A stretch of 32,000 nt of DNA from positions 1,650,001 to 1,682,000 of the forward strand of contig JALDRA010000001.1 in the NCBI GenBank assembly GCA_031316235.1. The letters run 5' to 3'. The stretch comes from Candidatus Scalindua sp. GTDB taxonomy: Bacteria; Planctomycetota; Brocadiia; Brocadiales; Scalinduaceae. A program made the position numbers and the translations under genes. Numbering within the stretch: position 1 is the stretch's first letter; each line of letters begins with the position of its first letter. The notes under the pieces are model-generated. The model made no database searches and was not told the origin of the DNA. It saw only the letters and a list, made by a program, of their open reading frames with translations. This document shows positions 1,350 through 26,297 of this stretch, in pieces.

Positions 1350-1533
1350 TATTGTGAAATCAGATTTTATCGAATACAAACACGATGATCATCAACCTTT
1401 TTCACCGTCCCAGGCATTTCGGACCAACGGCATCGGGATTATACAAAAGCTCTTTTTATAAGTAAACAAATACTTACTTTTTCTTGACAAACAAGTAAAC
1501 CTGTGTACACTTATAGAGAGGGCAGGGAATTTC

Positions 1534-1572
1534 AGATAATCATTAAAACCGATTTGGTTTTAGTAATTATCT
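1534..1572. repeat. Repeat family fragment: module-B-type hairpin only
   Basis: AGATAATCATTAAAACC-GATTT-GGTTTTAGTAATTATCT forms a 17-bp hairpin with one mismatch and one G-T wobble. The core CTAAAACCGATTTGGTTTTAG is shared with 6269-6289, and in reverse complement with 20525-20544 and 26273-26292. Confidence 0.6.
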
Positions 1573-1623
1573 AAACCCTGTAAAGTCTTTAGTCTCATTC
1601 ACCTTTGCATGGAGGCCGTAGAG

Positions 1624-1971
1624 ATGAAAAAGATATTTATCATGGTAGTATTTTTTCTGTTTTGCTTTCATGGGATATGGATACCCCGGGGAAATGCAAA
1701 AACTGTATCGGTATGGCATGGTCCCATTATAGTGAAGGATCTGGAAAAGGTCCCTGTCGACAACGAAAAGAAACTTTTCTCACTTAATGAAGAAAAAAAA
1801 ATGCTCCCGACTCTTCCAGATCTGGTCCTTTCTGACGATGGTTATGATGTAAGCAATGCGACAGACCCGGCTTCTTCAGACCAGGACTGGTCTGCTCAAC
1901 CGGCATCAAATACAAAATCTTATCCTAAAGTGTATTTGAATCTGTGGCGTTTTATCATACTTAGCGGGTAA
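1624..1971 (+). CDS. Small secreted hypothetical protein
   Basis: ORF 1609..1971. GGAGG at 1611-1615 lies 8 nt upstream of ATG 1624. The N-terminus MKKIFIMVVFFLFCFHGIWIPRGNA looks like a signal peptide. No family was recognised. Confidence 0.5.
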   Translation: MKKIFIMVVFFLFCFHGIWIPRGNAKTVSVWHGPIIVKDLEKVPVDNEKKLFSLNEEKKMLPTLPDLVLSDDGYDVSNATDPASSDQDWSAQPASNTKSYPKVYLNLWRFIILSG

Positions 1972-2257
1972 GAATAAGAGGAAACATTAATTCATTTACC
2001 TGTTCCGGATATCTCAATGCAGAAAGTCATGAGTGGTTGTGGGTCAGTTGATTGCGCAAGAACCCATTCGTTTTGCCGATGTGAATAATTTTTCAAAAAA
2101 AAAGAGATATATGCGAAGGAGGGAATTGTTGTACGGAGATACCTTGGAAAGGGTGAGTTTGAAAGGCCTGGTTTTTACCTCCGGGATGAATTAGCCGAGA
2201 AAAAACAGTACCATTCAAGTTCAGATCTCCTTACATGAGGCACTTTTACAAAAACTA

Positions 2258-3019
2258 ATGAATCCACAATTTCTGATCAAATTATCTGTTATCTTTTTTT
2301 GGTGTTCACTCTTTATCTATACTTCTTACTGGATAACAGGCTTTCTGGGGAAAAAAACAAGATTCTCTGTACTATTGGGCGGTATAATTCTCCATGCATC
2401 TGCGATAACGTTCAGAGGCATCGCCATAGAATACTTTCCATTAACAAACAAGTTTGAATCATTCAGTGGTTTTGCCCTTGCCACATTTATTGTCCTTTTA
2501 TGTAACTCTAAAATAGAGAGCTATGTCTACCGGATCGCTCTTTTTTGTGTTGGATACTGCTTTTTAGTTGCTGCCTCTTTTTTCCCTAAAGATCTCAGCT
2601 ACGCACCACCGCTCATGTTAACAATCTGGTATCTCCTTCACGTCCCGATATCTTTCTTCTGTTATGCCTTATGGACAAGTTCATCAGCAGCTGCATTGGC
2701 GAGGTATTTCTCATCCGGCAATCAGAGACGATTTGAGCAGGTAATAGATTTCGGGTTTCAGTATGGCTTTATAGCATTTTCGATATCAATGATATTTGGA
2801 GGCCTCTGGGGATTTGTTGCCTGGGGCTCATACTTCATGTGGGATGCCAAGGTTCTCTGGTCGGTGATTATATGGTTCTTTTATGCAACGTGCATCCATC
2901 TGGATTACTGGACTGAAGCAAAAAAATTCAAGACACCTTTAGCCCTGGTTGGCTTTATCATACTGCTCACTACGTATGTCGGCACAAGTTTCTTTACCCT
3001 GAGTTCTCACCGATTTTAA
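2258..3019 (+). CDS. ccsA: Cytochrome c biogenesis protein CcsA/ResC (System II heme handling)
   Basis: A polytopic membrane protein with a Trp-rich WWD-type motif, GGLWGFVAWGSYFMWDAKVLWS, and conserved His residues in flanking helices (LLHVPISF, CIHLDYW). Confidence 0.8.
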   Translation: MNPQFLIKLSVIFFWCSLFIYTSYWITGFLGKKTRFSVLLGGIILHASAITFRGIAIEYFPLTNKFESFSGFALATFIVLLCNSKIESYVYRIALFCVGYCFLVAASFFPKDLSYAPPLMLTIWYLLHVPISFFCYALWTSSSAAALARYFSSGNQRRFEQVIDFGFQYGFIAFSISMIFGGLWGFVAWGSYFMWDAKVLWSVIIWFFYATCIHLDYWTEAKKFKTPLALVGFIILLTTYVGTSFFTLSSHRF

Positions 3020-3062
3020 GCAAGACAATATTTCACAAAAACCTCTATAAAACGAGCAATAC

Positions 3063-4028
3063 ATGAAAGTATACAACTTCCTGACATCCCAGAAAACGGG
3101 AATCATTACCGGATTCACCGTAACCGGCCTCATGATCATTGGAAGCCTGATCATGAATTATTGGCCACAGTATTATGCAGGGCTTTCAGGAGAAGATATC
3201 AAATTCTTCTTTCAGGAAGTCCACCCCATTCACATCTGGTTCTATGTGATGTTTCTCGCCTTCATCATGTACGGAATCTCTATTTTTTTCTGTACCCTCG
3301 ACTCCGTTGTCAGGAAGATAAGAACCCGAACTCGAAAATTTCCTTTATATGGGGCTTCCATAGTACATATTGGATTTCTGATTACTCTTGCCGCACACTT
3401 AATAGGAGGTATAGGATCAGAATCAGGCACACCGATTACGGTTGCGGGTTCATGGGTTGCAACCGATGACTTTGAGATCAAGGTTGAAGATTTTAACTCT
3501 ACCTCGTATCCCAATGGAATGCCCAAACGGATTTATGCAACCATGAAGTTAAGAAGAAATGGGCAGGAGATTGAACGTGTCCTTGGATACAACAACCCCA
3601 TTGTTCTGGATCACGGTGCAAAAGAGATTCTACTCAGTACCTATGGCAACATGCCGGAATCAATTATCCTGGATGTCAGTGGAGAGGCATACGATTTGAG
3701 GGTAGGTGATGCCGTTACGATAAACGGAACAAAAGTGTATCTTGCTGATATATTCCTTCCTCCAAGAGTTCGACTCCCTGTTGCCATGTTCGTTTCACAA
3801 GGCGGGGAGACAAAAAACAATCAAATGTATCTCCCCATTGGCAAACAGAATAGACAAAATATTCTTGGGAAAGAGTTAACATTTATTGACATAAACACCT
3901 CCACTGCAGTAGTTTTCACCGTAAAGAACAATCCAAGTATCCCGCTCACACTGGTGGCAATTGGATGCTTTGGTTCCGGTATGCTGCTCGTCATATTCAG
4001 GACTGCCTACAAGATGGTTAGAATATAG
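3063..4028 (+). CDS. ResB/CcsB-like cytochrome c biogenesis membrane protein (short form)
   Basis: It lies directly downstream of ccsA. It has N-terminal TM helices with His (IHIWFYVMF, SIVHIGFLITLAAHLIGG), a soluble middle region and a C-terminal TM helix (LTLVAIGCFGSGMLLVIF). This is the ResB topology, but at 321 aa it is shorter than typical ResB. Confidence 0.55.
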   Translation: MKVYNFLTSQKTGIITGFTVTGLMIIGSLIMNYWPQYYAGLSGEDIKFFFQEVHPIHIWFYVMFLAFIMYGISIFFCTLDSVVRKIRTRTRKFPLYGASIVHIGFLITLAAHLIGGIGSESGTPITVAGSWVATDDFEIKVEDFNSTSYPNGMPKRIYATMKLRRNGQEIERVLGYNNPIVLDHGAKEILLSTYGNMPESIILDVSGEAYDLRVGDAVTINGTKVYLADIFLPPRVRLPVAMFVSQGGETKNNQMYLPIGKQNRQNILGKELTFIDINTSTAVVFTVKNNPSIPLTLVAIGCFGSGMLLVIFRTAYKMVRI

Positions 4029-4178
4029 AGTGAACTTTGAATCGATTCGGTTCCTTTTGCGGGGCCTGCTGATGATGAGAAAAAGAGTGATTTGATTAGT
4101 TGCGAATTTATAAGAAGAGGGAAGCTTTTGTCGCGTATTAAGCAAAAAATAATTTACTCTTTTGTATCATTAAATCCC

Positions 4179-5117
4179 TTACATGTGGAATGACAGGCAT
4201 GGTTTCATTCTACGAGACTTCCCTTTCCTTTCCCCCCAGTAGCTGTTGTTCTCAACGGGTGATTTCTGGTTTGATTTGTTGAAAATCATATCAGTAAAAT
4301 TATAAACAGGATAGCATTTTTTCAGATACGCTATTTGGGAAGAAGGAGCATTCTTGAATATGTCCGTTTTCTCTACAAAAAAATATTTCAAATCTTGATA
4401 GCTGTATTGATATTTATTTAAGAACTTCTCTGGATCGGTTTTTCTCTGGATAAACATACTGTAGCGGTCCCTTCTATCATGTTTCTTAAACTCTTTTTCC
4501 AGTGTGTTTAAGTTGATATATTTGGCTATTGCCGGGGCATTGTTAACCTCATCATACATTTTTAACTCCCCCATGTCTTTGAATAATAAAAAATCATACG
4601 TAATTTTGTGCTTTGGGTGTATGGTGATACAGATAAAGTCGAGTTTAAGAAATTCTTTTGTGTAATCAAGAATGTGTTTAAAGAGGAAGAATACGAGAAA
4701 GAGTTTTTTTGAATTGAGCATCATTGACACACTATTTTTGAATAGTTCCGTATCGCATGCAAGCATAGATATCTCGCATATCTTTTTACCGCCTACTCTT
4801 AACTGATTTAGCTCCTGGTGATAAATTTCATCCATAGGCAGTCCTACAGGAGAATCGAGTATGACAGTTGTTGTGGCAATTACATCTTTTCCGGCAGTAG
4901 CAACAAAAGTAGTCGTTTGAGGATGGGCATTATGTATCGCCAGCCTTAACCTTGAATTTGGATTTTTGATGTATCCTTTCTTTGCATACTCTCTGTGGAC
5001 CAGTGCCGCAGCGCCTTCCAATTCTTCTTTTGTTCTGGCAACTCTAAAATCTATCTTATCGAGAAAGTTACGCAAGCCTGAACGGTTAGAATCATTACAA
5101 TCTTTTGTCAGCTTCAT
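4179..5117 (-). CDS. FeeM-like N-acyl amino acid synthase / GNAT-fold acyltransferase (putative)
   Basis: The N-terminal pattern FRVARTKEELEGAAALVHREYAKKGYI...TTFVATAGKDVIATTTVILDSPVGLPMDEIY...KKICEISMLACD matches my recollection of the N-acyl amino acid synthase (Acetyltransf_5/FeeM) family. The track start 5138 is a TTG, so I prefer ATG 5117 (MKLTKD). About 100 extra C-terminal residues are of unknown function. Confidence 0.45.
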   Translation of the reverse strand: MKLTKDCNDSNRSGLRNFLDKIDFRVARTKEELEGAAALVHREYAKKGYIKNPNSRLRLAIHNAHPQTTTFVATAGKDVIATTTVILDSPVGLPMDEIYHQELNQLRVGGKKICEISMLACDTELFKNSVSMMLNSKKLFLVFFLFKHILDYTKEFLKLDFICITIHPKHKITYDFLLFKDMGELKMYDEVNNAPAIAKYINLNTLEKEFKKHDRRDRYSMFIQRKTDPEKFLNKYQYSYQDLKYFFVEKTDIFKNAPSSQIAYLKKCYPVYNFTDMIFNKSNQKSPVENNSYWGERKGKSRRMKPCLSFHM

Positions 5118-5761
5118 GGTTATCGGCAGAATAAACAATTGGGAGCTAAGGTTGATTTAGAGATGTTCGTAACAAAACAAATAGCATGCCATCTCTTACT
5201 AAAAAGAAAATAAACAGATGAGATCTGTTCGAAATTCAAGCGCACCGTGAAGGGAAATTCATACAGCGATCAATATATTCAAATACTTAAAATCTCGGCT
5301 GTTTTATTTAAGAGGGCAAATAAGAGAGGTAATTGTGGGAAATCATTCACGCAATCGTGTTAATAAAGGCTAATTTTAGCAAAATCTCCTGGACCGACCT
5401 GTTTAAAATATCCACACTTGTCTAAATTTTCAACATAATTCCCCCTGTCAGCCAGTAAAAGGTCGCAAAGATGCGATGAACTCCCGCAAAAAGAGTACCT
5501 CCATCTCTCTTGAGAACAATCAACTAAGACTAATTATATTAGTGTCTTAAACTGGCACATCTTAACCGGCTGATGGTCAGTAAGGTTTGCATTTTTACCA
5601 CGACAGACAGACCCTCTTTTTAACAATGTTTTTAGGATGAAAAGAGCTGTTTGTGTCCAAATTTGCAACAGGTGTGCAAAAATTCAACAATTACGAGGAG
5701 AGTTGGTCTCGATGAAATTGCAAGAAAGCTAGGAAATTATTGGAAAATACGTAGTCCTCTT

Positions 5762-6199
5762 TTATGACGAGTCAATACCGTCTTCCCCCGTGAGGTATGA
5801 AGAGAGTATTTTTCCACATATGAAATTTACATATCGTTGCCTATCGTTATGCTCCATCTTAGAGAATTTCACCCCTACACTATATAGGTCTTCTTTATTA
5901 ACAGCCGGGAGTTCTTCCTGGCATAGGTTTTTTTCGCATCTCACGACTTTGCATTTAAAGATAAGAGGATGGGGGTCCTTGGTTAGATTAATCTTTAGTC
6001 TCAATTCCGTATTTTTTTCTATATCCTTCCTATTTCGAAATCTTAAACCGTCTCCGCCAACATCTTCAACAGTCTGAGGTCCGATCCATTCAGTATCGGG
6101 AAGATATGAATAAAACAGATATACAGGAACAGAGAGCCTTTCACTTCTCCTGCTATCTTGAGAAAGAAGCTCTTTTATTTCATCTTTTTTAGAACTCAT
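5762..6199 (-). CDS. PilZ domain protein (c-di-GMP receptor)
   Basis: It has an RxxxR motif (SRRSERLSV, about 6131-6154) and a D-x-(S/G)-x-x-G motif (DVGGDGLRF). The track start 6235 is a TTG that would make the perfect palindrome at 6216-6233 coding, so I prefer ATG 6199 (MSSKKDEIKE). Confidence 0.75.
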   Translation of the reverse strand: MSSKKDEIKELLSQDSRRSERLSVPVYLFYSYLPDTEWIGPQTVEDVGGDGLRFRNRKDIEKNTELRLKINLTKDPHPLIFKCKVVRCEKNLCQEELPAVNKEDLYSVGVKFSKMEHNDRQRYVNFICGKILSSYLTGEDGIDSS

Positions 6200-6215
6200 A
6201 ATGCAACTTACGGAT

Positions 6216-6233
6216 GTCTGGCTATAGCCAGAC
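6216..6233. promoter_or_regulatory. Perfect 18-bp palindrome GTCTGGCTATAGCCAGAC upstream of the PilZ gene (possible operator or 5'-UTR hairpin)
   Basis: The sequence equals its own reverse complement. It sits 17 nt upstream of ATG 6199 and 28 nt from the end of repeat copy 6261-6403. Confidence 0.4.
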
Positions 6234-6260
6234 AAAATCCAGCAAAGAATCTTCTACCTT

Positions 6261-6403
6261 ATAGTATGCTAAAACCGATTTGGTTTTAGATTTTTCTAAA
6301 AACCCAAGTATGGTTAATGGTATCCCCGGACCAGGCGCAGAGGGCTTTACTCGCTCTATTTTTTTTCGGATTTTATCCGAAAACCATCATACGATGAGTA
6401 TAA
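6261..6403 (-). repeat. Modular hairpin repeat, full copy (modules A+C+B), reverse orientation
   Basis: Its reverse complement aligns along its whole length with 26156-26297. Shared elements are TATACTCATC...TTTCGGATAAAATCCGAAAAAA...GAGCGAG, a GC-rich insert, and ...AAAACCAAATCGGTTTTAGCATACTAT. Confidence 0.85.
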
Positions 6404-6634
6404 CAGCACCTTAAACAATCATTTTACCTCCTTTTTTGTAAAAAGCAATATTTTATGCACTGCCACAACCGTATTATCTTTAATTGACAGAGCGTTAACA
6501 GCTTGTATAATACGCCTGTATGTAATCCTCATACACAGCATCTTCTCTGCAACTTCTGGATTATGGACAAAAAGAGCGATTGCTATACCTTGAATATTTC
6601 CAACCATTTTATGATAAAAACATATTCGCAATAG

Positions 6635-8716
<2,082 letters not shown>

Positions 8717-8828
8717 TTTTGGCATAAAATTTGTGCACAAACATTCAATACTCGTGTCAGGTAAGACATGATTCTCTCTGCCTCGTCAAATACACCGGGC
8801 ATCTGAGAAGAGAAAAAAACCACATATA

Positions 8829-10190: not shown

Positions 10191-10275
10191 AAAAACACAA
10201 TCTCCTCACCTCCCTCACTCGTTGAATCCAGTATCCGGGCGGTAACTCAACCCCTGATTTTAAGAATTATCTGTT

Positions 10276-10361
10276 ATATACTAAAACCAGATCCTGGTGA
10301 AGGTATACTCGCTCAATTTTATCTCGGTTTTATCCGAAAACCAATATGAGATGAGTATATA
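10276..10361 (-). repeat. Modular hairpin repeat (module A plus collapsed module B), reverse orientation
   Basis: Its reverse complement is ATATATACTCATCTCATATTGGTTTTCGGATAAAACCGAGATAAAATTGAGCGAGTATACCTTCACCAGGATCTGGTTTTAGTATAT. This equals the type copy minus the inner B hairpin. Confidence 0.85.
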
Positions 10362-10527
10362 TGTTTTGTATGCGGAACACAGAATCCTGATTCCTGATAG
10401 AAATTACAGCCGAGGGCACTATTCAGAGTGAAGAATTTATACCTATCCTAACGGCCTGTGCAAATTGCAAGCTCATGAGAGTGACACTTCGGATTCTCAC
10501 ACAATCGGAAAGGAGATAATTTATCAT

Positions 10528-11568
10528 ATGGACATTACCGAGTTACTCAAATTTACAAAGGAGCAGAACGCTTCAGATCTGCACATCAGTGCCGGGGAGC
10601 CTCCAGCCGTAAGAAAGGATGGTGACTTACAGAAACTGGATTCACCGCCCCTTGATAAAGAAACAGTACATACTGTCTTATATGAAATCCTCAATGACAA
10701 GCAACGTAAAATTTTTGAAGAAACAATGGAATTGGATTTTGCCATATCATTTGGCGAAACGTCTCGCTACAGGGTAAATGCCTTTATGCAAAGCAGAGGG
10801 GAAGGTATCGTATTCAGGACAATTCCAATCAAAATTCCAACCTTAACGCAATTAGGCCTTCCTGAAATCCTTGGAAGAATCGCAAAAAAAGAGAAGGGAC
10901 TGGTGCTCGTAACAGGGCCAACGGGCAGTGGCAAGTCTACCACCCTTGCAGGCATGATAGAGCTCGTCAATACCGAAGATAAAGTACACATAATCACAGT
11001 TGAAGACCCCATTGAATTTCAATATGAGCCCAAAAAAGCCCTCATAAATCAGAGAGAACTTGGTCCTCACACCAAGAGCTTTGCAAATGCATTGCGTTCA
11101 GCATTAAGGGAAGATCCTGATGTGATATTGGTTGGAGAAATGAGGGATCTGGAAACAATCTCTCTGGCCATAACTGCTGCTGAGACAGGCCACCTGGTTT
11201 TTGGCACTCTGCATACCTCAAGCGCGCCAAAAACAATTGACAGGATCATAGACGTCTTCCCTGCGGACCAGCAATCACAAATCAGGGCAATGTTTTCAGA
11301 ATCAATCCTTGCCGTTATCAGCCAGAATCTTGTAAAACGAAAAGATAGATCAGGCAGGGTGGCAGCTCTGGAAATAATGGTTGTAACCCCTGCCATAAGA
11401 AATCTCATCAGAGAAGGGAAGGTTGCCCAAATACACTCTGCCATACAAACGGGGAAACAATTTGGAATGCAGACGATGGATAATGCCTTACGAGAGCTTT
11501 ATGAAAACGGGATTGTTGAATTAGATGATATCCAGAAATTATTGACAAACCCCGATATCATAAGATGA
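10528..11568 (+). CDS. pilT: Type IV pilus retraction ATPase PilT
   Basis: It has Walker A GPTGSGKST, Walker B/Asp box ILVGEMRD, His box GHLVFGTLHT and the PilT signature AIRNLIREGK. AAGGAG lies 9-10 nt upstream of ATG 10528. The track start at 10465 is probably an upstream extension. Confidence 0.9.
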   Translation: MDITELLKFTKEQNASDLHISAGEPPAVRKDGDLQKLDSPPLDKETVHTVLYEILNDKQRKIFEETMELDFAISFGETSRYRVNAFMQSRGEGIVFRTIPIKIPTLTQLGLPEILGRIAKKEKGLVLVTGPTGSGKSTTLAGMIELVNTEDKVHIITVEDPIEFQYEPKKALINQRELGPHTKSFANALRSALREDPDVILVGEMRDLETISLAITAAETGHLVFGTLHTSSAPKTIDRIIDVFPADQQSQIRAMFSESILAVISQNLVKRKDRSGRVAALEIMVVTPAIRNLIREGKVAQIHSAIQTGKQFGMQTMDNALRELYENGIVELDDIQKLLTNPDIIR

Positions 11569-11630
11569 AATTTGCCGGTAATTCCTTGTCGAGAAATTTT
11601 ATTCACTATTTTTCAGGATTGATATAGCAA

Positions 11631-12737
11631 ATGGAAATGAGAAAAATTTTGGAAGAGATGGTAAGGCTAGATGCTTCAGACGTCTACCTGACAGTACATT
11701 TCCCACCTGCCTACCGTGTAGACGGCAAAATTACACCGAGTGAAACCCCTGCATTGAAGCCGTATGATACAGAGAGGCTTGCCTTTGATACCATGACAGA
11801 GAAGCAAAAGGCAATTTTCCTTGAAGGGAAAGAGATGAACCTTGCTCTCGGCCTTAAGTCTCTTGGCCGTTTTCGGATAAATGTGTTATATCAAAGAGGC
11901 AGTATCAGCCTTGTTATTCGCCAGATAAAGCTTGATATCAAAACTGTTGATGATTTACAGTTGCCTGAAGTCCTGAAAAGTGTCATAATGGCCAAAAGAG
12001 GCCTTGTCCTCGTAGTTGGCGGTACAGGTTCGGGAAAATCTACATCACTTGCGGCCATGATAGACTATAGAAATACAAACTCTCATGGACATATTATTAC
12101 GGTTGAAGATCCAATTGAATTTATTCACAAACATAAAAAGTCAATAATCACTCAAAGGGAGGTTGGGATGGATACCCTTTCCTTTGCTGATGCCTTAAAA
12201 AATACCCTGAGACAGGCACCAGATGTTATTCTCATAGGTGAGATCAGGGATACAAATACCATGGAATCTGCCATAACCTTTTCTGAAACAGGCCATCTTT
12301 GCTTAGGCACCCTACACGCAAACAATGCCAATCAGGCGATTGAACGTATTATCAATTTTTTCCCATCAGAAAGGCACGATCAAATATATCTTTTACTCTC
12401 GTTAAATCTCAATTCAATTATATCGCAGAGACTGATACCTACAATTGAAGGAGGAAGAGCCGCTGCCTTTGAAATATTAATAAACAGCCCAAGAATAAAA
12501 GATTTGCTGCTCAAAGGTGAAATTGAGTTACTGAAAGAAACCATGTCACAGGGCAACCAGGAAGGCATGTTGACATTTGACCAGTCAATATTTAATCTAT
12601 ACAGATCAAAAATAATAAGTTATGAGAATGCACTTGCGTATGCCGACAGTACAAATGATGTCCGGTTAAGGATAAAGACTGAGAATCTGGAACCAGAGGG
12701 CCAGCAGGTAAAACAAGCTTTTAAGATTAGGGAATAG
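11631..12737 (+). CDS. PilT/PilU-family hexameric ATPase (PilU-like paralog)
   Basis: It has Walker A GGTGSGKST, ILIGEIRD and GHLCLGTLHA. The AIRNLIRE position is replaced by PRIKDLLLKGE, as in PilU-like paralogs. Its stop TAG (12735-12737) abuts the ATG of the next gene. Confidence 0.8.
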   Translation: MEMRKILEEMVRLDASDVYLTVHFPPAYRVDGKITPSETPALKPYDTERLAFDTMTEKQKAIFLEGKEMNLALGLKSLGRFRINVLYQRGSISLVIRQIKLDIKTVDDLQLPEVLKSVIMAKRGLVLVVGGTGSGKSTSLAAMIDYRNTNSHGHIITVEDPIEFIHKHKKSIITQREVGMDTLSFADALKNTLRQAPDVILIGEIRDTNTMESAITFSETGHLCLGTLHANNANQAIERIINFFPSERHDQIYLLLSLNLNSIISQRLIPTIEGGRAAAFEILINSPRIKDLLLKGEIELLKETMSQGNQEGMLTFDQSIFNLYRSKIISYENALAYADSTNDVRLRIKTENLEPEGQQVKQAFKIRE

Positions 12738-14054
12738 ATGAGAGACGCTATAGAAGAAAAGATATTAGACCTCGCCACTAGAAAGGTCGATTCAGCAGAG
12801 GTGATTTACGAAGAAGGAGAATCCAGATCTATCAGCTTTGAAAATAATAAGCTGAAGTCCGTTCACACAAAGTCGATTAGAGGAGTTGGCTTGCGGGTGA
12901 TAAGAGAAGGAAAAATCGGTTTTTCCAGTACAACAGATTTCAGAGATCCCGAGAGGGTTGTCTCAAATGCAATTGAAAGTGCTAAATTTGGTCAGAAAGC
13001 ATATTTCGAGTTTCAATCAAAAACACAATACAAGGATGTGAAACTCTACGATGAAGAGGTAGTTAGTTATCCGATTGAAAAAGGGATCCAAATTGGCAGG
13101 GAGGCGATCGAAAAAGCTCTTACCGTTAACCCAAATTATGAATGTGGGGTTAGTATTGCAAAGGGTGTGGGAAAATATCGTTTACTTAACTCAAAGGGGC
13201 TGGACGTGAGTTCTCAATCTACGTCCATCGGCTTAGGCCTCGACATACTATTAGTGAGGGACAGTAGCCTCTTGTTGGTAAGCGAAGGAGAAAGCTCTAC
13301 AAAATTAATTAAAGATCTTGATAAGCATACCACAAAAGCCCTGAATAGTTTAAGATTGGCAGAAAAGGAGTGTAAGGTTGCAACTGCGGGTTATCCGGTT
13401 ATCTTTACTTCCAAGGCAATTGGAAATCTTCTCGCAACATTTGAAAGCGTATGTAATGGGAAGTTAGTGCAAAAAGGAGCCTCTCCTTTAACGGGAAAGC
13501 TTGGGGAAAAAATACTCGACGAAAGAATTACCATATATGACGACTCAACAATTGACTATGCAGATGGCAGTTTTATCTGTGATGATGAAGGAGTACCTGC
13601 ACAGAAAACCATACTCTATGAATCCGGAGTCCTGAGAAACTACATTTACGATTTACAAACAGCCGGAATTATGAATACAAAATCTACGGGTAATGGAACA
13701 AGAAGCTTTGCATCGCAGCCCTCTCCAGGAAACTCCAATATTGTCGTTGAAACGGGCAACATGAGTTTTGAAGCTATGATTAAGGACCTAAAGCGTGGTA
13801 TCCTTATCGATCAGGTTTTAGGTGGCGGCCAAAGTAACACGTTGGCGGGAGAATTCTCTGTCAATATTGATCTCGGGTATCTCGTTGATAACGGAGAAAT
13901 TGTGGGCAGGGTTAAGGATTGCATGATAGCTGGTAATGTATTTGACATTTTCAACAACCTGATAGCCATTGGAAACCAATCAGACTGGCATGGCTCTCTC
14001 AAGGCTCCTCCTTTCTATTTTCGATCGATAAATGTTGCAGGAAACAAAAGTTAA
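12738..14054 (+). CDS. pmbA: PmbA/TldE-type protein (TldD/PmbA family, no HExxxH)
   Basis: It is colinear with the TldD/PmbA fold (GVGLRVI..GKIGFSST; C-terminal GGGQSNTLAGEFSV...GNVFD) but lacks the metal-binding HExxxH. Confidence 0.8.
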   Translation: MRDAIEEKILDLATRKVDSAEVIYEEGESRSISFENNKLKSVHTKSIRGVGLRVIREGKIGFSSTTDFRDPERVVSNAIESAKFGQKAYFEFQSKTQYKDVKLYDEEVVSYPIEKGIQIGREAIEKALTVNPNYECGVSIAKGVGKYRLLNSKGLDVSSQSTSIGLGLDILLVRDSSLLLVSEGESSTKLIKDLDKHTTKALNSLRLAEKECKVATAGYPVIFTSKAIGNLLATFESVCNGKLVQKGASPLTGKLGEKILDERITIYDDSTIDYADGSFICDDEGVPAQKTILYESGVLRNYIYDLQTAGIMNTKSTGNGTRSFASQPSPGNSNIVVETGNMSFEAMIKDLKRGILIDQVLGGGQSNTLAGEFSVNIDLGYLVDNGEIVGRVKDCMIAGNVFDIFNNLIAIGNQSDWHGSLKAPPFYFRSINVAGNKS

Positions 14055-14405
14055 CGCATGCTTTTTGTGTCACAATAGTATACAGCATTCTCAATTTAAT
14101 ACATGCTTTTCAAAAGCAAGAAAAACCACATAAACCTTCACATGCTTTTTCTTTATCCTCTGGTACCAGCCCGCTGTATTTCAAACCATTGCACTGCAGC
14201 TACTTATGGATTCAAACACCTTGTAAATCTCACCTCAATCTGAACAACCAAAAAAAATAAACCGTAATCCCCTCTTTGAATAGATTTTCGGAAGAGACAG
14301 ACTCAACTCTCTTATTTTCAACACATTGAGATAATTCTCCTGAAACCATTCCTATTGGTACGAAAGTTGTTATACAATAACCTCTACCCTGTTTGCACGG
14401 AACAG

Positions 14406-14465
14406 ATATACTCATCTCATAATGGTTTTCGGATAAAATCCGAGATAAATTTGATCGAGTATACC
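14406..14465 (+). repeat. Modular hairpin repeat, module A only
   Basis: The sequence is ATATACTCATCTCATAATGGTTTTCGGATAAAATCCGAGATAAATTTGATCGAGTATACC. It ends 48 nt upstream of GTG 14514. Confidence 0.85.
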
Positions 14466-14513
14466 AAGTGGAAACAGTAGGTTATGAAAACATTTTTATG
14501 ACAGGAAAAAACG

Positions 14514-16842: not shown

Positions 16843-16876
16843 GCTCGTCTGCTCTGAATCGCCATATATGGTAAGG

Positions 16877-19163: not shown

Positions 19164-20067
19164 ACCCCATTGGTAATAACTCCTTTACCTCTCCATTTGA
19201 ATGGTATAAGTCTATGCCCCGGGTCTTTTTAATGCGGCCAATTCTTGATAAACGTGTGGAAAATACGTTTGAATCAAGCAGCTTCACTGATTCAGCCTCG
19301 GAAAGAGTAAAGAGCAGTTCATAGTCTTCACCGTCATAAAGTGCATGGTCAAAGGCGCTTCGGCCTGTTTTACGGGACAATCGATCAGCATCAGAAGATA
19401 CCGGTATTTTATCCTCATATAATTCCGCACCTGTCCCACTCGCCACGAGGATATGATGCAGATCAGCCACGAGACCGTCGCTGATATCTATCATAGCGTT
19501 TATCTTGAATTTTTTGTTCAAAATAAACCCTTCTCTCAGGCGAGGTGTAAAGGTTAAGTGCTTTTTCACTATCGAACCTCCAAGTGTACCCGTTACCAGT
19601 ACCGCATCACCCACTCTCGAAGCTGCTCGTGTCACCGGCTTTAACCCACTATTTTCTCCAAGCATCGTTACGTTAACGGCAAACAGGTGTTTGTTGCTCA
19701 CAACATCGCCACCTATTATCTTAATATCAAACTCATCGGCTATCGCCTTCATCCCCATAAACAGCTCTTTTGCAAACCGTGTTTTTGTTTCTTGAGGGAA
19801 GCAGAGAGAAACCACAGCATATTTGGCTATACAACCCATGGCCGCAATGTCACTGATACTGCACGCAATCGACTTTCTCCCCACCTGGCCGGCTGAAGTC
19901 TTTTTTAGCTCAAAGTGTGTGCCCTCTACCAACATATCTGATGTGATGAGGAGCAAATTACTATCATTAATTTTTATCGAGGCACAATCATCGCCTATGT
20001 CAATGGCAATGTTTTTGTCCCGTTTTTGCTGTTTTTTTATCCAATTTATGAAGGTGAATTCTTTCAT
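19141..20067 (-). CDS. thiL: Thiamine-monophosphate kinase ThiL
   Basis: It has the AIR-synthase-like fold signature IGDDCASI...ITSDMLVEGTHF, plus GGDVV and DISDGLVADLHH. Confidence 0.9.
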   Translation of the reverse strand: MKEFTFINWIKKQQKRDKNIAIDIGDDCASIKINDSNLLLITSDMLVEGTHFELKKTSAGQVGRKSIACSISDIAAMGCIAKYAVVSLCFPQETKTRFAKELFMGMKAIADEFDIKIIGGDVVSNKHLFAVNVTMLGENSGLKPVTRAASRVGDAVLVTGTLGGSIVKKHLTFTPRLREGFILNKKFKINAMIDISDGLVADLHHILVASGTGAELYEDKIPVSSDADRLSRKTGRSAFDHALYDGEDYELLFTLSEAESVKLLDSNVFSTRLSRIGRIKKTRGIDLYHSNGEVKELLPMGYEHFKKK

Positions 20068-20382
20068 CCGTATAAAAAAATTATATTAGCTTTTCCCTTA
20101 AATACCAGCATAATTTATTACAAGTACAAAGAAGCGTTACTGTATTAATTTCTTACTCTTTTAAAGAATTTGCGAGTTATGAGATAAAACTTTATTTGTT
20201 GAAAATATATACAAATTATCAGATAATGAACAGAACCTGATTTATCCACACGCGCAATAAAATATAAATAAGGAAAATCAGAATCCGCACTGTTTAAATC
20301 CATAATGCTGCGTTATTTCAGTTTTTATATCTCACGGCGAGTGTCTCCAAACTATTTTTTAACAGCTGGTTCTTCCCTGTTG

Positions 20383-20397
20383 TGGCACACGAAGTGC
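20383..20397 (+). promoter_or_regulatory. Sigma54-like promoter box TGGCAC-N5-GTGC (GG-N10-GC)
   Basis: The sequence TGGCACacgaaGTGC has GG at 20384-85 and GC at 20396-97. It sits on the correct strand in the thiL/20643 divergent intergenic region, about 40 nt upstream of repeat copy 20436-20549 and 246 nt upstream of ATG 20643. Confidence 0.35.
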
Positions 20398-20435
20398 GGA
20401 TTCAAACATTCCGGTTGGTATAGAATTAATAGGGG

Positions 20436-20549
20436 ATATACTCATCTCATACTGGATTTCGGATAAAATCCGAGATAAAATTGAGCGAGTATACCTTCAC
20501 CAGGATTTGGTTTCCGGTAAAACCGAAAACCAAATCGGTTTTAGTATAT
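20436..20549 (+). repeat. Modular hairpin repeat, type copy (modules A+B)
   Basis: The sequence is ATATACTCATCTCATACTGGATTTCGGATAAAATCCGAGATAAAATTGAGCGAGTATACCTTCACCAGGATTTGGTTTCCGGTAAAACCGAAAACCAAATCGGTTTTAGTATAT. Its ends are inverted (ATATACTCA / TTAGTATAT). Confidence 0.9.
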
Positions 20550-20642
20550 CAAGGGACACACTCCAGAGAGTTCAAAAGAGTTTTGAAGTAATGCAGAAAG
20601 CATATCAAAGTACATTATTATTCATTTCACGACTGAGTTATT

Positions 20643-21425
20643 ATGAACAAAAAAGAAGCTATTCAGGAACACAGTTTACAAAAACTCTCCGACAAAGACC
20701 TCCTTTTTCTCATAGAGAGTTACGTAACAAAACGGGATGACTATGAAAATATTGCCAACTTGATCAGGGGAGATCAAGACATTATCGGACAGATGATTGA
20801 TAATGACAGGATCTTCAATAAGGTAATGAATTGTACAAGTCAAATTCTGGGTATCTCTCCTTTTTTCATGTTTTCGCTATTTCTACGAAGATCATTCAGA
20901 GAGAAAATTTCCGATCCTGAATTTGTTGATCAGGCTATAGCTATCTTAAATAGTGACGACATTGTTATTCCCTGGAATAAGGAGAAACTGATCAGCCTGC
21001 TTGAAGACATGCAGGTTTCCAACTATATTGCAAATATGCTGGTAAAATTTTCCGAAAGTTCACAATTATTTAAAATAAGAGAGGGAGAAAATGAATCATA
21101 TCAATATATTGTAGACATGATTACAGACTCTCTGAAATCGGATACTATGAAAAAATTCTCCATTTACTGCCATATAGGAAACTATACCCTCTTTTTAACA
21201 GGAATGTTTTCAGAATATATCAAGTATAGATTTGAATACCGGCGCAGGCTTGTAGACAGGCAATATTACATAGATTTTGGAAAGGCATATTATGAATTGG
21301 CCTCTAAACATGCCAGTGCAAAAAAAAACAATCTGAGCAATACATTTTTGCAATTATCAAGGGGTTTTGAGATTTTTGCACAGGTTTTACATTTTATGAA
21401 CAGAAAGTATCTTTTCCCTAAATAG
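20643..21425 (+). CDS. Hypothetical protein (260 aa, no recognised domain)
   Basis: A long ATG-initiated ORF with protein-like composition, but I could recognise no motif. Confidence 0.55.
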   Translation: MNKKEAIQEHSLQKLSDKDLLFLIESYVTKRDDYENIANLIRGDQDIIGQMIDNDRIFNKVMNCTSQILGISPFFMFSLFLRRSFREKISDPEFVDQAIAILNSDDIVIPWNKEKLISLLEDMQVSNYIANMLVKFSESSQLFKIREGENESYQYIVDMITDSLKSDTMKKFSIYCHIGNYTLFLTGMFSEYIKYRFEYRRRLVDRQYYIDFGKAYYELASKHASAKKNNLSNTFLQLSRGFEIFAQVLHFMNRKYLFPK

Positions 21426-21538
21426 TGCTTGAACGGCAGAATGACCTGCCCTTCAAAGATAAAGCATGTCCTATCAAGAAAAAATTCATCTCATTCCTGA
21501 GTTTTAAGGCGCTTGCAAGAACGTAACTTCCCGTCTAT

Positions 21539-21587
21539 CAAACTCATCTCATAATAGTTTTCGGATAAAATCCGAGAAAAACCGGAG
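21539..21587 (+). repeat. Modular hairpin repeat, degenerate partial module A
   Basis: The sequence CAAACTCATCTCATAATAGTTTTCGGATAAAATCCGAGAAAAACCGGAG retains the central TCGGAT-AAA-ATCCGA hairpin. Confidence 0.7.
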
Positions 21588-21907
21588 TCTGTTCGTTTTC
21601 CACTATATGCAAAACTGACTTATACCGAAGGCCAGAGGGAGCTTTCCAATAAAGGCGAACAAAAAATGGGCAACCCTGAACGATGAACTCTGCACCTGTG
21701 AACGATTGCACAAATTGTCTATATTCTAAACAATTCCACCTGTTTTCCCTGAGCCTTCCCACCATCGACATGTTCCTGTTATCCTGTATGTAATATATCT
21801 GACGAAAAGCTCAGAGAACATTTTTCCGAGAAATGCAGTCTTCAAGAAAGTAATAGGGCAACTGGTGAAAGTACACCGGTGAAAATAGCACTATTTACCA
21901 TACTATC

Positions 21908-21923
21908 CGGCACTCAAAATGCT
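21908..21923 (+). promoter_or_regulatory. Sigma54-like promoter box cGGCAC-N5-aTGCt (GG-N10-GC)
   Basis: The sequence CGGCACtcaaaATGCT has GG at 21909-10 and GC at 21921-22. It lies immediately 5' of repeat copy 21928-21998 and 125 nt upstream of ATG 22048. Confidence 0.35.
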
Positions 21924-21927
21924 GGAG

Positions 21928-21998
21928 TATACTCATCTCATAATGGTTTTCGGATAAAATCCGAGATAAAATTGAGCGAGTATACCTTCACCATGATT
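21928..21998 (+). repeat. Modular hairpin repeat, module A plus first ~15 nt of B
   Basis: The sequence is TATACTCATCTCATAATGGTTTTCGGATAAAATCCGAGATAAAATTGAGCGAGTATACCTTCACCATGATT. It ends about 49 nt upstream of ATG 22048. Confidence 0.85.
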
Positions 21999-22047
21999 AT
22001 GAATAGGTAAAATTCCTTTCGGAACTTTTTATAAAGTGGGATAGCAA

Positions 22048-25000
22048 ATGGGAAAATCCAACAAATTAAATACCTCTTTCATTAAAATCACCATCGCAAA
22101 CAAGCTCCTGGTCTGGTTTTTTTTAGCGACATTATTTCCTCTCGTTATTGTCGGTACCGTATCCTATCACAACTACACAACAATACTGAAAAAGGAGGTG
22201 GAAAACAATCTGCTCATGCTTGTTGAGAATAAGGCCTTTCAGATTGAAACCTATGTAAAAGAGCGGAAGCGGGATCTTGTTTCCCTCTCACAGACTCCAA
22301 CCATTATCAAGGCACTGGAGAAATTCAATACCATTTACAGTAAGCAAGGTATAAATTCTCTGGAATATATGACCGCCGATAAAGAATTCAGGACCTTCCT
22401 GACCCACTTCAAGGAGACGTCTGAATATTATGATCTTTTCCTTATTTCTCCCTCTGGTGAAGTTGTTTTTACGGTAATTCACGAAGAAGATTTTGGATCA
22501 AACCTGGAAACGGGACATTATAAAGGATCTGAGCTGGCCAAAGTCTTCGCACGTGCACAAACTCTGTCTGAATCAGAAATTTCTGATTCCAAGTATTACG
22601 CAGCATCCGGTGACGGTGCAACATTCCTGGCCCTGCCAGTTCTTAACCGTGGAGTGTTCCTGGGAGTCGTCGCAATCCAGATGAGTTCGGATGAAATCTA
22701 TAAGCTGCTACAAAACAACACTGGCCTGGGAAATACCGGAGAAACCGTTCTCGCATCAAGATTTGATGATTACACATTATTGTTAACTACTCAGAGAAGA
22801 GATTCAGAAGAATTAATTATCAGAAAAGTTTCTCTGGAGTCTGACATGGCATTGCCGGTAAATAAAGCCATGCAGGGGGGAAATGGAATTGATGTTTACG
22901 TTGATTACCGAGGAAAAAAGGTACTGGCTGCATGGAGATATATACCCCATTTAAGATGGGGTATGGTGGTAAAAATTGATACAAAAGAGGCATTCTCCTC
23001 AATTTACCATCTCACATGGTGGTATTCGGTCTTGGGATGTGTTACTTTACCAGGAGTCATTTTTATCGCCTTACTTGTATCCAGGTCAATTTCTCGTCCG
23101 ATTAGTAAATTGACGAGAACTACGGAATTAATGGCTGATGGAGACTTGACCGTAAGGGCAGAGATAGAAAAAAGAGACGAAATTGGCAATCTTGCAAATA
23201 CTTTTAACGATATGATAGGTAAACTTGTGGAAGCCAGAGAGGGTGCCGAAAGACACAACCGGGCGCAAATGGGACAGACATTGTTAAACGTGAAGATGAG
23301 GGGTGAAAAGGATGTGGGAACGTTAGGAACTAATATTATCAGCTATCTGACTGAATTTCTCGAAGCACAGATTGGTGCAATATATATCATGAACAGTAAC
23401 AATCGATTAAAGATGATTGGTAGTTATGCTTATGAAAAGCGGAAAAACCTATCAAATGAATTTTTACCCGGTGAGGGTATTGTAGGTCAGGCAGCCCTGG
23501 AAAAGAGATATCTCCTTATTACCAATTGCCCGGAGGATTATATCAGCATTCATTCCAGCCTTGGAAAATCCGCCCCAAATAATATCCTGGTATATCCGCT
23601 TCAAATTGATAATGAGGTAAAAGGTGTAATTGAACTGGGAACATTACACGAATTTTCTGAAACAGACTTGCATTTTCTTGCACAGGTTCAAGAGGGAATT
23701 GCTATTGCTCTGAATTCTGTCTCTACTCTGGAACAACTGAGCTCTTTGCTCGAACAGACCCAGCTGCAGTCTGAAGAGATCCAGGCCAGGGAAGAGGAGC
23801 TGCGCAGCTACAATGAAGAACTGGAAAACCATACGAAGGCATTGCAGAAGTCTGAGGAGAGATTACAATCCCAGAAGAGAGAACTTCGGGCCTCCAATGA
23901 AGAGCTTGAGAAACAAAAATTGAACGCGGAAAAGAAGAATGAAGAGTTGGAAATTGCCCAGAGACTTATCGAAGAAAAGGCCAGGGATCTGGAGTTAAGC
24001 AGCAGGTATAAATCGGAATTCCTTGCTAACATGTCCCATGAACTCCGTACCCCTTTGAATAGCATACTCCTCTTATCCAGACTCCTTTCAGACAATAAAG
24101 ACCATGTCCTGACAGAAGATTATGTTGAATCTGCACGTTCCATTTATTCCTCCGGTTCAGAACTCCTGGAACTGATCAATGAAATACTTGATCTTTCCAA
24201 GGTTGAGGCAGGCAAGATGGAAATCAATATAGGGGATATGTATCTGCAGGATTTCTGCAATACAATGGAACGGGGATTCAAACCTCTTGCCAAGGAGAAA
24301 GGTTTATCCTTTAAAGTAAAAACCGGAGAAGGGCTGCCGCCCTCTATCCGAACAGATCGACAGCGAGTAGAACAGATAATTAAGAACTTTCTCTCAAATG
24401 CATTCAAGTTCACGAAAAATGGAAGTGTTACCCTACACATTTGCCGACCGGTAAAAGATCAAACAGAATGTACTCCTGAAAAGAGTGTAGTATTTTCCAT
24501 TATCGACACGGGAATGGGTATTCCAAAGGAAAAACAGAAATTGATATTTGAAGCATTTCAACAGGTAGACGGTACAATAAGTAGGAAATTTGGTGGCACA
24601 GGTCTTGGTCTTTCTATCTCAAAAGAGCTTGCAACTCTGCTCGGAGGAACAATTTATATGGAGAGCTTTGAGGGGAAGGGGAGTAGGTTTTCACTCCATC
24701 TGCCTGAAAAGAGGCTTTTGAAGGAGAAAATTTCTACTCCTCATCTCCCGGCAGGACATGAATTAAACAGACACACCAATAAACCTGATGAATGCCAGCC
24801 TTTCCAGTCGGAACCGGCAAACAATAAACAGGAGACTCTTGAAAAAATCAAGGATGACAGGTCAGAAATCTCTCCCAATGATAAATCAATTCTTATTATT
24901 GAGGATGACCCTAAATTTTTAAGAATCCTCAGTGATATCTCCCATGAACGGGGGTTTAAGTGTCTGGTTGCAGAAGATGGTAAAACAGGACTCCAATTAG

Positions 25001-26049
25001 CTGATTATTACAAACCAAGCGCCATAATACTTGATATTTTACTTCCCGATATCAGTGGTTTGACGGTAATGACCAGGCTGAAGGAGAATTTCTCTACACG
25101 CCATATTCCTGTTCACATCGTATCAGCGACCGACAATAAATCAGATGCCAGGAAAATGGGCGCTGTAAATTATTTAGAAAAACCTGTCAGCAAGGAAGAG
25201 CTCAGCCAGGTGTTTAATCAACTGAACAAGATAATTTCAAAAGACATTAAAGAGCTTCTTATTGTAGAGCATGACAGAAGTCAGGCAAAAGCTCTCATAC
25301 AATGTATTGGCGAAGAAGACGTGCACATAACGGTTGCTTCTACCGCTGCGGAAGCTTATGACCACGTTTTAACCGGAAATTTTGAATGTATTATCTTAGA
25401 TCTTCAACTTCCTGATACTTCCGGCGTTGCACTGTTAAGAAAAATCAGAACAAATGAAGATATCTGTTATCTTCCCATTATTGTTTACACGGGTAAGGAT
25501 ATTACGAAAGAAGAGAAAATCATAATAGACCAGTATGCAGAATCGATCATTGTCAAGGGTGTCGATTCTGATCGGAGACTCCTGGATGAGACGACACTTT
25601 TTCTTCACCGAGTAGAGGCAAACCTTCCAAAAGAGAAGCAGGAAGTTCTCAGGATGTTGCATGACAAGGAGGAGATCCTTTCGAATAAAAAAATTTTGGT
25701 GGTGGATGATGATATGCGAAATGTTTTTTCACTGAAAAAGGTGCTTGAAAGCAGGGGGATGCAGATACTGATAGGAAAAAACGGTAGAGAAGCGCTGGAA
25801 TACCTCGACAGGAACCCCGATATTGATTTGATACTTATGGATATCATGATGCCTGAGATGGACGGATATGAAGCCACGAGAAACATCCGGAAACAGCCGC
25901 GTTTTAAGGATCTCCCTGTAATTGCATTGACCGCAAATGCAATGAAGGGAGACCGGATTAAGTGTGTTGAAGCTGGTGCCTGCGATTACCTGGCAAAACC
26001 CATCGATATGGACAGACTGTTTTCAATGTTGAGAGTATGGTTGTATTGA
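22048..26049 (+). CDS. Hybrid sensor histidine kinase: TM-Cache-TM-HAMP-GAF-coiled coil-HisKA-HATPase-REC-REC-REC
   Basis: Two TM helices flank a Cache-like periplasmic region (YYDLFLISPSGEVVFT...). It has HAMP (RPISKLTRTTELMADGDLTVRAEIEKRDEIGNLANTFNDM), GAF (IGAIYIMNS...GEGIVGQAAL...VKGVIELGT) and a NEEL-type coiled coil (EELRSYNEELENH...ASNEELEKQ). It also has the H-box FLANMSHELRTPLNSI, the G-boxes DTGMGI and GTGLGLSI, and three receivers (IIEDD..ILDILLPD; IVEHD..ILDLQLPD; VVDDD..LMDIMMPEMDG..LAKP). Confidence 0.92.
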   Translation: MGKSNKLNTSFIKITIANKLLVWFFLATLFPLVIVGTVSYHNYTTILKKEVENNLLMLVENKAFQIETYVKERKRDLVSLSQTPTIIKALEKFNTIYSKQGINSLEYMTADKEFRTFLTHFKETSEYYDLFLISPSGEVVFTVIHEEDFGSNLETGHYKGSELAKVFARAQTLSESEISDSKYYAASGDGATFLALPVLNRGVFLGVVAIQMSSDEIYKLLQNNTGLGNTGETVLASRFDDYTLLLTTQRRDSEELIIRKVSLESDMALPVNKAMQGGNGIDVYVDYRGKKVLAAWRYIPHLRWGMVVKIDTKEAFSSIYHLTWWYSVLGCVTLPGVIFIALLVSRSISRPISKLTRTTELMADGDLTVRAEIEKRDEIGNLANTFNDMIGKLVEAREGAERHNRAQMGQTLLNVKMRGEKDVGTLGTNIISYLTEFLEAQIGAIYIMNSNNRLKMIGSYAYEKRKNLSNEFLPGEGIVGQAALEKRYLLITNCPEDYISIHSSLGKSAPNNILVYPLQIDNEVKGVIELGTLHEFSETDLHFLAQVQEGIAIALNSVSTLEQLSSLLEQTQLQSEEIQAREEELRSYNEELENHTKALQKSEERLQSQKRELRASNEELEKQKLNAEKKNEELEIAQRLIEEKARDLELSSRYKSEFLANMSHELRTPLNSILLLSRLLSDNKDHVLTEDYVESARSIYSSGSELLELINEILDLSKVEAGKMEINIGDMYLQDFCNTMERGFKPLAKEKGLSFKVKTGEGLPPSIRTDRQRVEQIIKNFLSNAFKFTKNGSVTLHICRPVKDQTECTPEKSVVFSIIDTGMGIPKEKQKLIFEAFQQVDGTISRKFGGTGLGLSISKELATLLGGTIYMESFEGKGSRFSLHLPEKRLLKEKISTPHLPAGHELNRHTNKPDECQPFQSEPANNKQETLEKIKDDRSEISPNDKSILIIEDDPKFLRILSDISHERGFKCLVAEDGKTGLQLADYYKPSAIILDILLPDISGLTVMTRLKENFSTRHIPVHIVSATDNKSDARKMGAVNYLEKPVSKEELSQVFNQLNKIISKDIKELLIVEHDRSQAKALIQCIGEEDVHITVASTAAEAYDHVLTGNFECIILDLQLPDTSGVALLRKIRTNEDICYLPIIVYTGKDITKEEKIIIDQYAESIIVKGVDSDRRLLDETTLFLHRVEANLPKEKQEVLRMLHDKEEILSNKKILVVDDDMRNVFSLKKVLESRGMQILIGKNGREALEYLDRNPDIDLILMDIMMPEMDGYEATRNIRKQPRFKDLPVIALTANAMKGDRIKCVEAGACDYLAKPIDMDRLFSMLRVWLY

Positions 26050-26155
26050 TTAACTATTGAGGATTTGTTAGCGAGATCATAAGTTCAGAGTTGGAATATC
26101 TGTCTCAGGAACCTGCTCTCCCTTGTCTTATTATTTCTACAGGGGAATCTGATAG

Positions 26156-26297
26156 ATATACTCATCTCATACTGGATTTCGGATAAAATCCGGGAAAAAA
26201 ATGGAGCGAGAAAAGTCCTCGGCACCTTTTGTCCGGGGATACCTTCACCAAGATTTGGTTTCCGGTAAAACCGAAAACCAAATCGGTTTTAGTATAC
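26156..26297 (+). repeat. Modular hairpin repeat, full copy (modules A+C+B)
   Basis: It matches the type copy with an extra 28-nt GC-rich module C (26211-26238, AAAAGTCCTCGGCACCTTTTGTCCGGGG). It ends 27 nt upstream of ATG 26325. Confidence 0.9.

Follow-up and report, generated by a model that had tools for sequence, protein, structure and literature searches.

Bacterial miniature inverted-repeat transposable elements, or MITEs, are typically shorter than 200 bp and rich in A and T, end in 5'-TA-3' and come with target-site duplications (PMC2229807). The Correia or NEMIS elements of Neisseria are intergenic, ~100-155 bp long and present at 10^2 copies per genome; they end in TA, duplicate a TA target, occur as 107-bp and 155-bp forms differing by an internal segment, would form long hairpins when transcribed, and have no known cognate transposase (PMC2229807). 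RUP of Streptococcus pneumoniae is a non-coding, intergenic element of 107 bp which inserts at TA, also lands in other mobile elements, and has an IS630-family parent, IS630-Spn1, with matching inverted repeats (PMC2229807). ISY100, an insertion sequence (IS) of the IS630/Tc1/mariner type, goes almost exclusively into TA targets and duplicates these 2 bp, and 24-bp imperfect inverted repeats, or ~24-30 bp per end, suffice for it (PMC2170065). Here we describe a family of short, modular, palindromic repeats from a 32,000-nt stretch of Candidatus Scalindua sp. DNA (GCA_031316235.1, contig JALDRA010000001.1, positions 1,650,001 to 1,682,000 of the forward strand; hereafter, the window). It resembles Correia in every one of the properties listed above, and RUP in length, absence of coding sequence, TA insertion, intergenic placement and in the landing of one lineage in a second, MITE-like repeat family. 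We put at roughly 0.8 the probability that it is a TA-inserting MITE, of one kind with Correia and RUP, which a DDE transposase of the TA-duplicating IS630/Tc1/mariner type most likely mobilizes in trans. The family appears to be previously undescribed and lineage-specific, but it is of a well-known kind, the TA-duplicating MITEs, and not a new class of system.

Scalindua anammox bacteria are uncultured and known mostly from metagenome-assembled genomes (MAGs). The window comes from such a MAG: a neighbouring protein of 260 amino acids is 100% identical to one (locus tag MRK01_07045) encoded on a 4.15-Mb contig of a Candidatus Scalindua sp. MAG. The gene content (PilT, GAF and hybrid kinases) had led to a guess at a cyanobacterial or Beggiatoa origin, which was rejected since the locus belongs to Scalindua. 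One genome per species was scanned in 8-kb blocks with the exact pattern ACTCATCNNATNNTNGNTTTCGGATAAAATCCG (27 specified bases), which was present in at least 118 blocks; among the matches listed all were Scalindua/Scalinduaceae MAGs, and four assemblies carried the pattern (SCAELEC01, RBC_AMX3, isolate CBDCUS01 and OFTM1). These blocks, amounting to 0.95 Mb, hold 115 full copies with length modes of 113, 140, 166 and 194 nt, together with anchor matches to the left end only (32) and to the right end only (26), a few of these single-end matches being diverged full copies. With 115 full and 58 partial copies, in sequence from 5 genomes, of a non-coding core of 112-113 nt, the family is small (MITEs are below ~300 bp) and multi-copy as MITEs are. 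The mean column identity across 44 core copies is 95%. After discounting the one fetching copy per block there remain 3-6.5 further copies per 100 kb, from which we roughly estimate a copy number on the order of 10^2 per genome. A ~110-bp repeat at such a copy number breaks short-read assemblies. Two Logan contigs which carry a window protein and are identical to the window correspond to positions 10331-14433 (L001) and 12246-14433 (L002); the former breaks off inside copies at both ends (10331 and 14433) and the latter at its 14433 end, as expected since repeats fragment such assemblies. The preliminary description of the window, made from the sequence alone, had been unable to assign the repeats to a named family, and our searches bear this out. 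No Rfam hit was obtained at gathering thresholds in the whole window (the best sub-threshold match reached 22 bits where the gathering score is 60, which is chance level at E 0.05), the plasmid collection and viral contigs contained no match to the element, and the literature search returned no publication with these sequences and none linking Scalindua to MITEs.

The element proper is ~108-109 bp long, 5'-TACTCATC...GGTTTTAGTA-3', and measures 112-113 nt (the core) when the flanking TAs are counted. Over the 115 full copies the sequence is 97-100% conserved as far as TATACT on the left and AGTATA on the right, and at the next base conservation drops to background. The termini are inverted, as had been noted, except that the outermost A and T of the ends first proposed (ATATACTCA...TTAGTATAT) belong to the flank, conservation being lost there. 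Both ends carry a bipartite inverted repeat composed of TATACT, a 10-nt non-matching spacer and TGGTTTTCGG; 18 of the 26 terminal positions are inverted-identical, a value which 0 of 20000 shuffles reached, and the element thus possesses the terminal inverted repeats of a MITE. This ~26-nt terminal unit recurs in alternating orientation along the core, with two complete occurrences at the termini (1-26 and 113-88) and two diverged or truncated ones inside (a diverged inverted one at 57-30 and a partial one at 69-82), hence the two palindromes, A and B, of which the core is made. TA is found on both sides in 105 of the 115 full copies. The same AT-rich, C-depleted preference is seen in the left flank and in the reverse complement of the right flank (r = 0.80), which makes the target symmetric. 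The site at locus L009 prompted us to consider a 4-bp duplication (TACA or TATA), which was rejected: past AGTA-TA the right flank shows no conservation, and within the element position 3 co-varies with the base that it faces in the stem.

The target duplication was read from four independent comparisons of filled and empty sites, in each of which the one TA of the empty site stands on both sides of the element, as is the case for the 2-bp duplications of IS630/Tc1/mariner insertions. For the complete copy at 20437..20548 (the type copy) the empty site is that of L121, the orthologous locus of a close relative in which a neighbouring protein is 95% identical. L121 reads AATAGGGGA-TA-CCAAGGGACAC, i.e. 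GGGGA-TA-CCAAGGG, and the window reads AATAGGGGA-TA-[TACTC...AGTA]-TA-TCAAGGGACAC, i.e. GGGGA-TA-[TACTC...AGTA]-TA-TCAAGGG; the type copy is a recent insertion. Two SCAELEC01 copies (L009 and L015) lie inside a second repeat of ~150 nt, of which ~40 uninterrupted copies read CCCAGG-TA-CAAGG, and the further filled/empty pairs are L099 with L019 and L036 with L095. Across the 2 kb covered by L121, two of the three window copies are missing from the relative and one degenerate fragment is common to both, so the family has been recently active in this lineage. Copies which differ in this way between close relatives can serve as markers at the level of strains, and they record recent transposition. 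The comparison also documents deletions associated with the element. At 21928 the site in L121 is uninterrupted (GGAGTATATAAAATAG...(~210 nt)...GATATGAATAGG); in the window the right half of the inserted copy is gone together with the ~210 nt of flank, and the junction shows a CAAGAT microhomology. Truncated copies can thus take flanking DNA along.

The likeness to Correia has its limits. Correia elements possess a contiguous inverted repeat of 24-26 bp and a single long stem, whereas here the repeat is bipartite (6 + 10 bp), there are two separate palindromes, and the element has nested GC-rich hairpins; no sequence similarity to Correia is known, the contiguous repeat of our family is 6 bp, and among the matches listed the family occurs in Scalinduaceae only. 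Correia elements have a documented integration host factor (IHF) site, as well as documented promoters and processing by RNase III. The IS630/Tc1/mariner elements encode their own transposase, while the element described here is without an open reading frame (ORF). BOX (boxA-boxB-boxC) and the BIMEs (mosaics of REP units) are, like this family, built from modular short units with dyad symmetry. Neither is known to show TA target duplication or clear transposon-like ends, and REP units have a high GC content and an association with RAYTs; in our family GC-richness is confined to the nested inserts, and the backbone behaves as a transposon. REP and REPIN sequences are GC-rich palindromes or inverted pairs of 20-40 nt that lack a target duplication and have an associated RAYT gene; judged on its AT-rich backbone and the TA duplication, the family does not belong with them. 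Of the resemblances that had been suggested at the outset, those to Correia and to a hairpin-ended MITE hold, and BOX and ERIC are poor matches.

The copies are not all alike, and their modular, mix-and-match organization had been accurately described. The nested-palindrome appearance is explained by the repeated terminal units together with secondary deletions, nested GC-rich hairpins and the exchange of cassettes. One source of the diversity is deletion between short direct repeats flanking the hairpins. Forms without the inner B hairpin (window 10277-10359, L006 and L026) are deletions between the GGTTT direct repeats around the B palindrome, and three copies of ~56 nt (two in L003 and one in L060), which consist of left end, loop and right end only, have lost what lay between TGGTTT repeats in A and in B. 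The GC-rich hairpins are nested at fixed points, C after GAGTA, and X and Y just 5' of TAAAA in hairpin loops. Module C, a GC hairpin of 20-28 nt, is present in about half of the copies and always lies between GAGTA and TA(A/C)C. In 27 of the 115 copies GC-rich hairpins of 26-85 nt occupy the B loop, always just 5' of TAAAACC, and a hairpin of type Z is located in the linker.

We propose that the element is served by a DDE transposase of the IS630/Tc1/mariner type whose gene lies elsewhere or has been lost; this enzyme would bind the putative site TGGTTTTCGG, cut at the TA|TACT boundary and paste the element into a new TA. The ~56-nt variants, essentially two ~26-nt ends and close to what suffices for ISY100 as cited above, are the minimal substrate to be expected under such a mechanism. 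Selection would purge insertions in genes, leaving intergenic copies in either orientation. Every window copy lies between long ORFs, in agreement with the intergenic placement first reported, and only 3 of 92 copies fall inside ORFs called by a heuristic which classifies 71% of the sequence as coding. Between tandem genes 27 copies are co-oriented and 24 anti-oriented; 24 are in divergent and 14 in convergent spacers. The preliminary description had set out what would make this an ordinary MITE: random orientation, target-site duplications, and a transposase-bearing parent with the same termini. Orientation relative to the flanking genes proved random and the TA duplication was found; a parent with these termini was not found in the window or the 118 loci, whereas RUP has its own.

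This last result is one of several which weigh against the proposal. None of the 20 window ORFs scanned has a transposase domain, in keeping with the earlier statement that the window lacks a transposase, and the 118 loci contain no multi-copy transposase ORF. Inverted pairs of ends lying 0.45-4 kb apart are all either independent MITE pairs or an insertion of the IS110 family, and the only IS found between a left and a right end is of that family (L069 and L107). The contiguous part of the terminal inverted repeat is just 6 bp, followed by the 10-nt non-matching spacer, and a 2-bp duplication is formally indistinguishable from the outcome when an element whose termini are redundant by 2 bp inserts without duplicating its target. 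Two metagenome scans for a left end running into non-MITE sequence gave 0 matches, which is uninformative as the collection may not hold the family.

Two of these points, the short contiguous repeat and the lack of a DDE parent, would equally suit a single-strand element which has hairpin ends and is mobilized by a Y1/HUH transposase, that is, an IS200/IS605-derived PATE or a REPIN mobilized by a RAYT, in which the A and B hairpins would be the recognition structures and insertion would occur 3' of a short target without duplication. Both ends do form strong hairpins as single-stranded DNA (z ~ -5, on either strand). We nevertheless regard such an element as quite unlikely, given the TA on both sides of nearly all copies and the single TA kept in empty sites, a target preference which is symmetric and lacks a one-sided motif of 4-5 nt, and the occurrence of TGGTTTTCGG at equal distance from the tip in both ends, which is typical of DDE inverted repeats; for a REPIN, moreover, the element is AT-rich where REP and REPIN sequences are GC-rich. 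The same folding could be thought to reflect a structured or cis-regulatory RNA (a terminator, an alternative-helix attenuator or a small RNA) under selection on structure, a reading to which we give very little credence and which the data largely refute. The copies fold well (the type copy at -21 kcal/mol as DNA, z = -5.3, with similar values for the other strand), the helices originally described for A and B are the minimum-energy folds, and all copies are intergenic. As had also been pointed out, AAAACC is complementary both to an upstream GGTTT(C) and to a downstream GGTTTT. These two stretches are simply the direct repeats on either side of the B palindrome and form the end points of the hairpin-less deletion seen, for example, at 10277-10359, and neither a riboswitch-like switch between alternative helices nor a function for mutually exclusive helices finds support. 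Pairing in helices A and B amounts to 93.1% across the alignment of 44 copies, against 93.0% with shuffled partners, so that covariation, which we looked for in both helices, was rejected as indistinguishable from shuffles. Only two pairs change on both sides, one of them being a single lineage (TACACTC/GAGTGTA) counted twice, and substitutions mostly break pairs; the palindromes therefore belong to the master sequence and are not upheld in the individual copies. Nor does an RNA function agree with the absence of orientation bias or of an Rfam match at gathering scores, with promoter-like and terminator-like sites that show no excess over shuffles, or with a presence and absence which varies between close relatives and leaves the TA duplicated at filled sites.

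A different question is whether the modules C, X, Y and Z are themselves independent, ultra-small mobile elements, inserted singly and without recombination between copies. The case is best made for X (CCTGCCTGTGCG..CGCAGACAGG, 27-33 nt), which stands exactly 5' of TAAAA, with no duplication, at two different places: in B loops (for example in L032, L081 and L098) and in the A loop, there just 5' of TAAAATCC (two copies in L016, ending at +4416 and +5878, and one in L051, at -3342). X was seen in RBC_AMX3 only, and a few occurrences of X and Y (CCCGCCCGGCC...GGACGGG, likewise 27-33 nt) lie outside the MITE, a third repeat family being among these places. Module C, by contrast, was never found outside the element in the loci and always holds one position, and was rejected as an independent element on that ground. 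Nearly all recurrent GC-rich islands of the 0.95 Mb lie within the element or next to it (30/35, 5/5 and 5/5), and a few are located in the third repeat family. The presence or absence of C, the two linker alleles (CCTTCACC and AACTGCAACC) and the four loop types occur in nearly all combinations, and copies at the same locus, with the same flanks and rare diagnostic substitutions in common, differ by the whole central cassette and nothing else (L009 and L015 in the linker allele; L037 and L093 in having C + Z or the plain form). Gene conversion or allelic cassette replacement, acting between the conserved arms A and B, offers the best explanation of these swaps: the central cassette would be replaced, most likely by conversion among the ~10^2 copies, and a modular repeat architecture can arise in this way. 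Independent mobility of the modules fits the swaps less well, and we think it doubtful, for X and Y in particular as for the modules as a group. The loop-specific nesting of the GC micro-hairpins could still be the only part of the family that is truly unusual. If X and Y were mobile, they would enter exactly 5' of TAAAA (or, read on the opposite strand, 3' of TTTTA) and leave no target duplication, their targets would be the single-stranded loops of AT-rich MITE hairpins, and each insertion would lengthen the hairpin; this would point to a single-strand mechanism, HUH/Y1-type or of some other nature, aimed at hairpin loops. There would then be three levels of nested parasites, with the second MITE carrying this MITE and this MITE carrying micro-hairpins, in the same hairpins that receive IS110 elements and group II introns. 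Among known sequences, the small dispersed repeats (SDR) of Nostoc and Anabaena come closest to the X and Y loop hairpins; they were reportedly described by Elhai et al. in 2008 (Genome Res 18:1484; cited in PMC3116915) as units of 20-30 nt nested in larger repeats and hairpins; they are from a different phylum and have different sequences.

A separate observation concerns two copies in two species, L024 4498-4609 and L114 6827-6939, which have ~35 nt of left and ~25 nt of right flank in common and are identical apart from the linker allele (CCTTC-ACC and AACTGCAACC, respectively). Either the element here lies inside a larger common repeat or its linker has been converted.

Within the window the family was located with an nhmmer profile built from 44 full copies (alignment A1) and run without filters, which yielded seven significant copies and one marginal fragment; the preliminary description had counted at least eight intergenic copies, one more than the seven we regard as solid. 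A repeat finder also reported the family (as D1), with a 71-nt unit in five direct copies, starting at 14407, 20437, 21539, 21928 and 26157, and with reverse-complement copies at 6348-6402 and 10284-10360; the repeat family is real. The type copy, on the plus strand (20437..20548; E 9e-36), is a full core copy with modules A and B, its 112 nt including the flanking TAs at 20437-20438 and 20547-20548. The 140-nt copy at 26157..26296 (plus strand; E 4e-29) has the organization A+C+B, direct reading placing module C at ~26211-26238, where it had been reported. This copy and the type copy have the host-specific substitutions CATACTGGATTT in common, which suggests a local master copy. A diverged full copy of 138 nt, also A+C+B and with the alternative B loop TTTAGAAAAATCTAAAA, occupies 6265..6402 on the minus strand (E 5e-23). 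The copy first delimited as 10276-10361 does lack the inner B hairpin; it spans 10277..10359 on the minus strand by direct reading (83 nt; nhmmer 10282-10359, E 4e-20), and both termini and both TAs are intact. Two plus-strand copies are truncated, that at 14407..14465 consisting of module A and a linker stub (E 3e-16, profile positions 1-59) and that at 21928..21998 having been inserted at GGAG-TA before its right part was deleted (E 1e-20). An old, degenerate module A fragment at 21539..21588 (plus strand; nhmmer 21542-21588, E 5e-11) has an ortholog in the related genome (L121 2989-3037).

The remaining candidates are less secure. At 1544..1565 on the minus strand, within what had been called a copy of the B hairpin only (1534-1572), 18 of 18 nt agree with the right terminus AAAACCAAATCGGTTTTA, but a TATA end is absent and the profile gives an E value of 0.005 only; it may be a solo right-terminus remnant, of uncertain membership, and is not a full B hairpin copy. 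A separate 9-bp inverted repeat (AGATAATTA...TGATTATCT; window 1531-1578) encloses the 18-nt match, which may be a remnant or part of an unrelated palindrome. The sequence at 30841-30874, once suspected of being a degenerate relative, was rejected as a member of the family: the profile does not detect it and it matches nothing in the 118 related loci.

The hairpins of the element act as landing pads for other mobile elements. In two RBC_AMX3 contigs an IS110-family element of 1.7 kb (DEDD_Tnp_IS110, E 5e-20; the ORF is apparently frameshifted) is found in the module C loop, between CGCCTGG and TTTTGTCC (L107 3240-4930, and alike in L069). As IS110 elements make no TA duplications, this is a secondary insertion. 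Copies in L096 (~5460 onward, directly after AAGTCCTCGG of module C) and in L023 (~440-2410, minus strand) contain the starts of group II introns, identified by Rfam matches to group-II-D1D4 and Intron_gpII which exceed the gathering scores, and element hairpins therefore act as intron landing sites.

Two further repeat families were met in the course of the analysis. The second family, represented in the window at 30955-31103, is 149 nt long with inverted ends of ~20 bp (TAGTGCGTAAACGAAAAC...GTTTTCGTTCAAACACTA), looks like another MITE, has at least 55 copies in the 118 Scalindua loci, and hosts the L009/L015 insertion. The third (...GGCCTGAAAATGAGATG-[Y-type GC hairpin]-CAAGAACGACAAGTTATTCTTTCCTGGATCC...) has the Y and W GC-rich modules in common with the MITE and was found at L037 ~4031, L061 ~7547, L039 ~972 and L122 ~3560-3640. 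At ~21436 the window is without a segment of ~700 nt that in L121 (2187-2886) contains a gene of 251 amino acids, and L123 has a gene of 224 amino acids at the matching position; this is a host-lineage deletion whose link to the MITE is not obvious.

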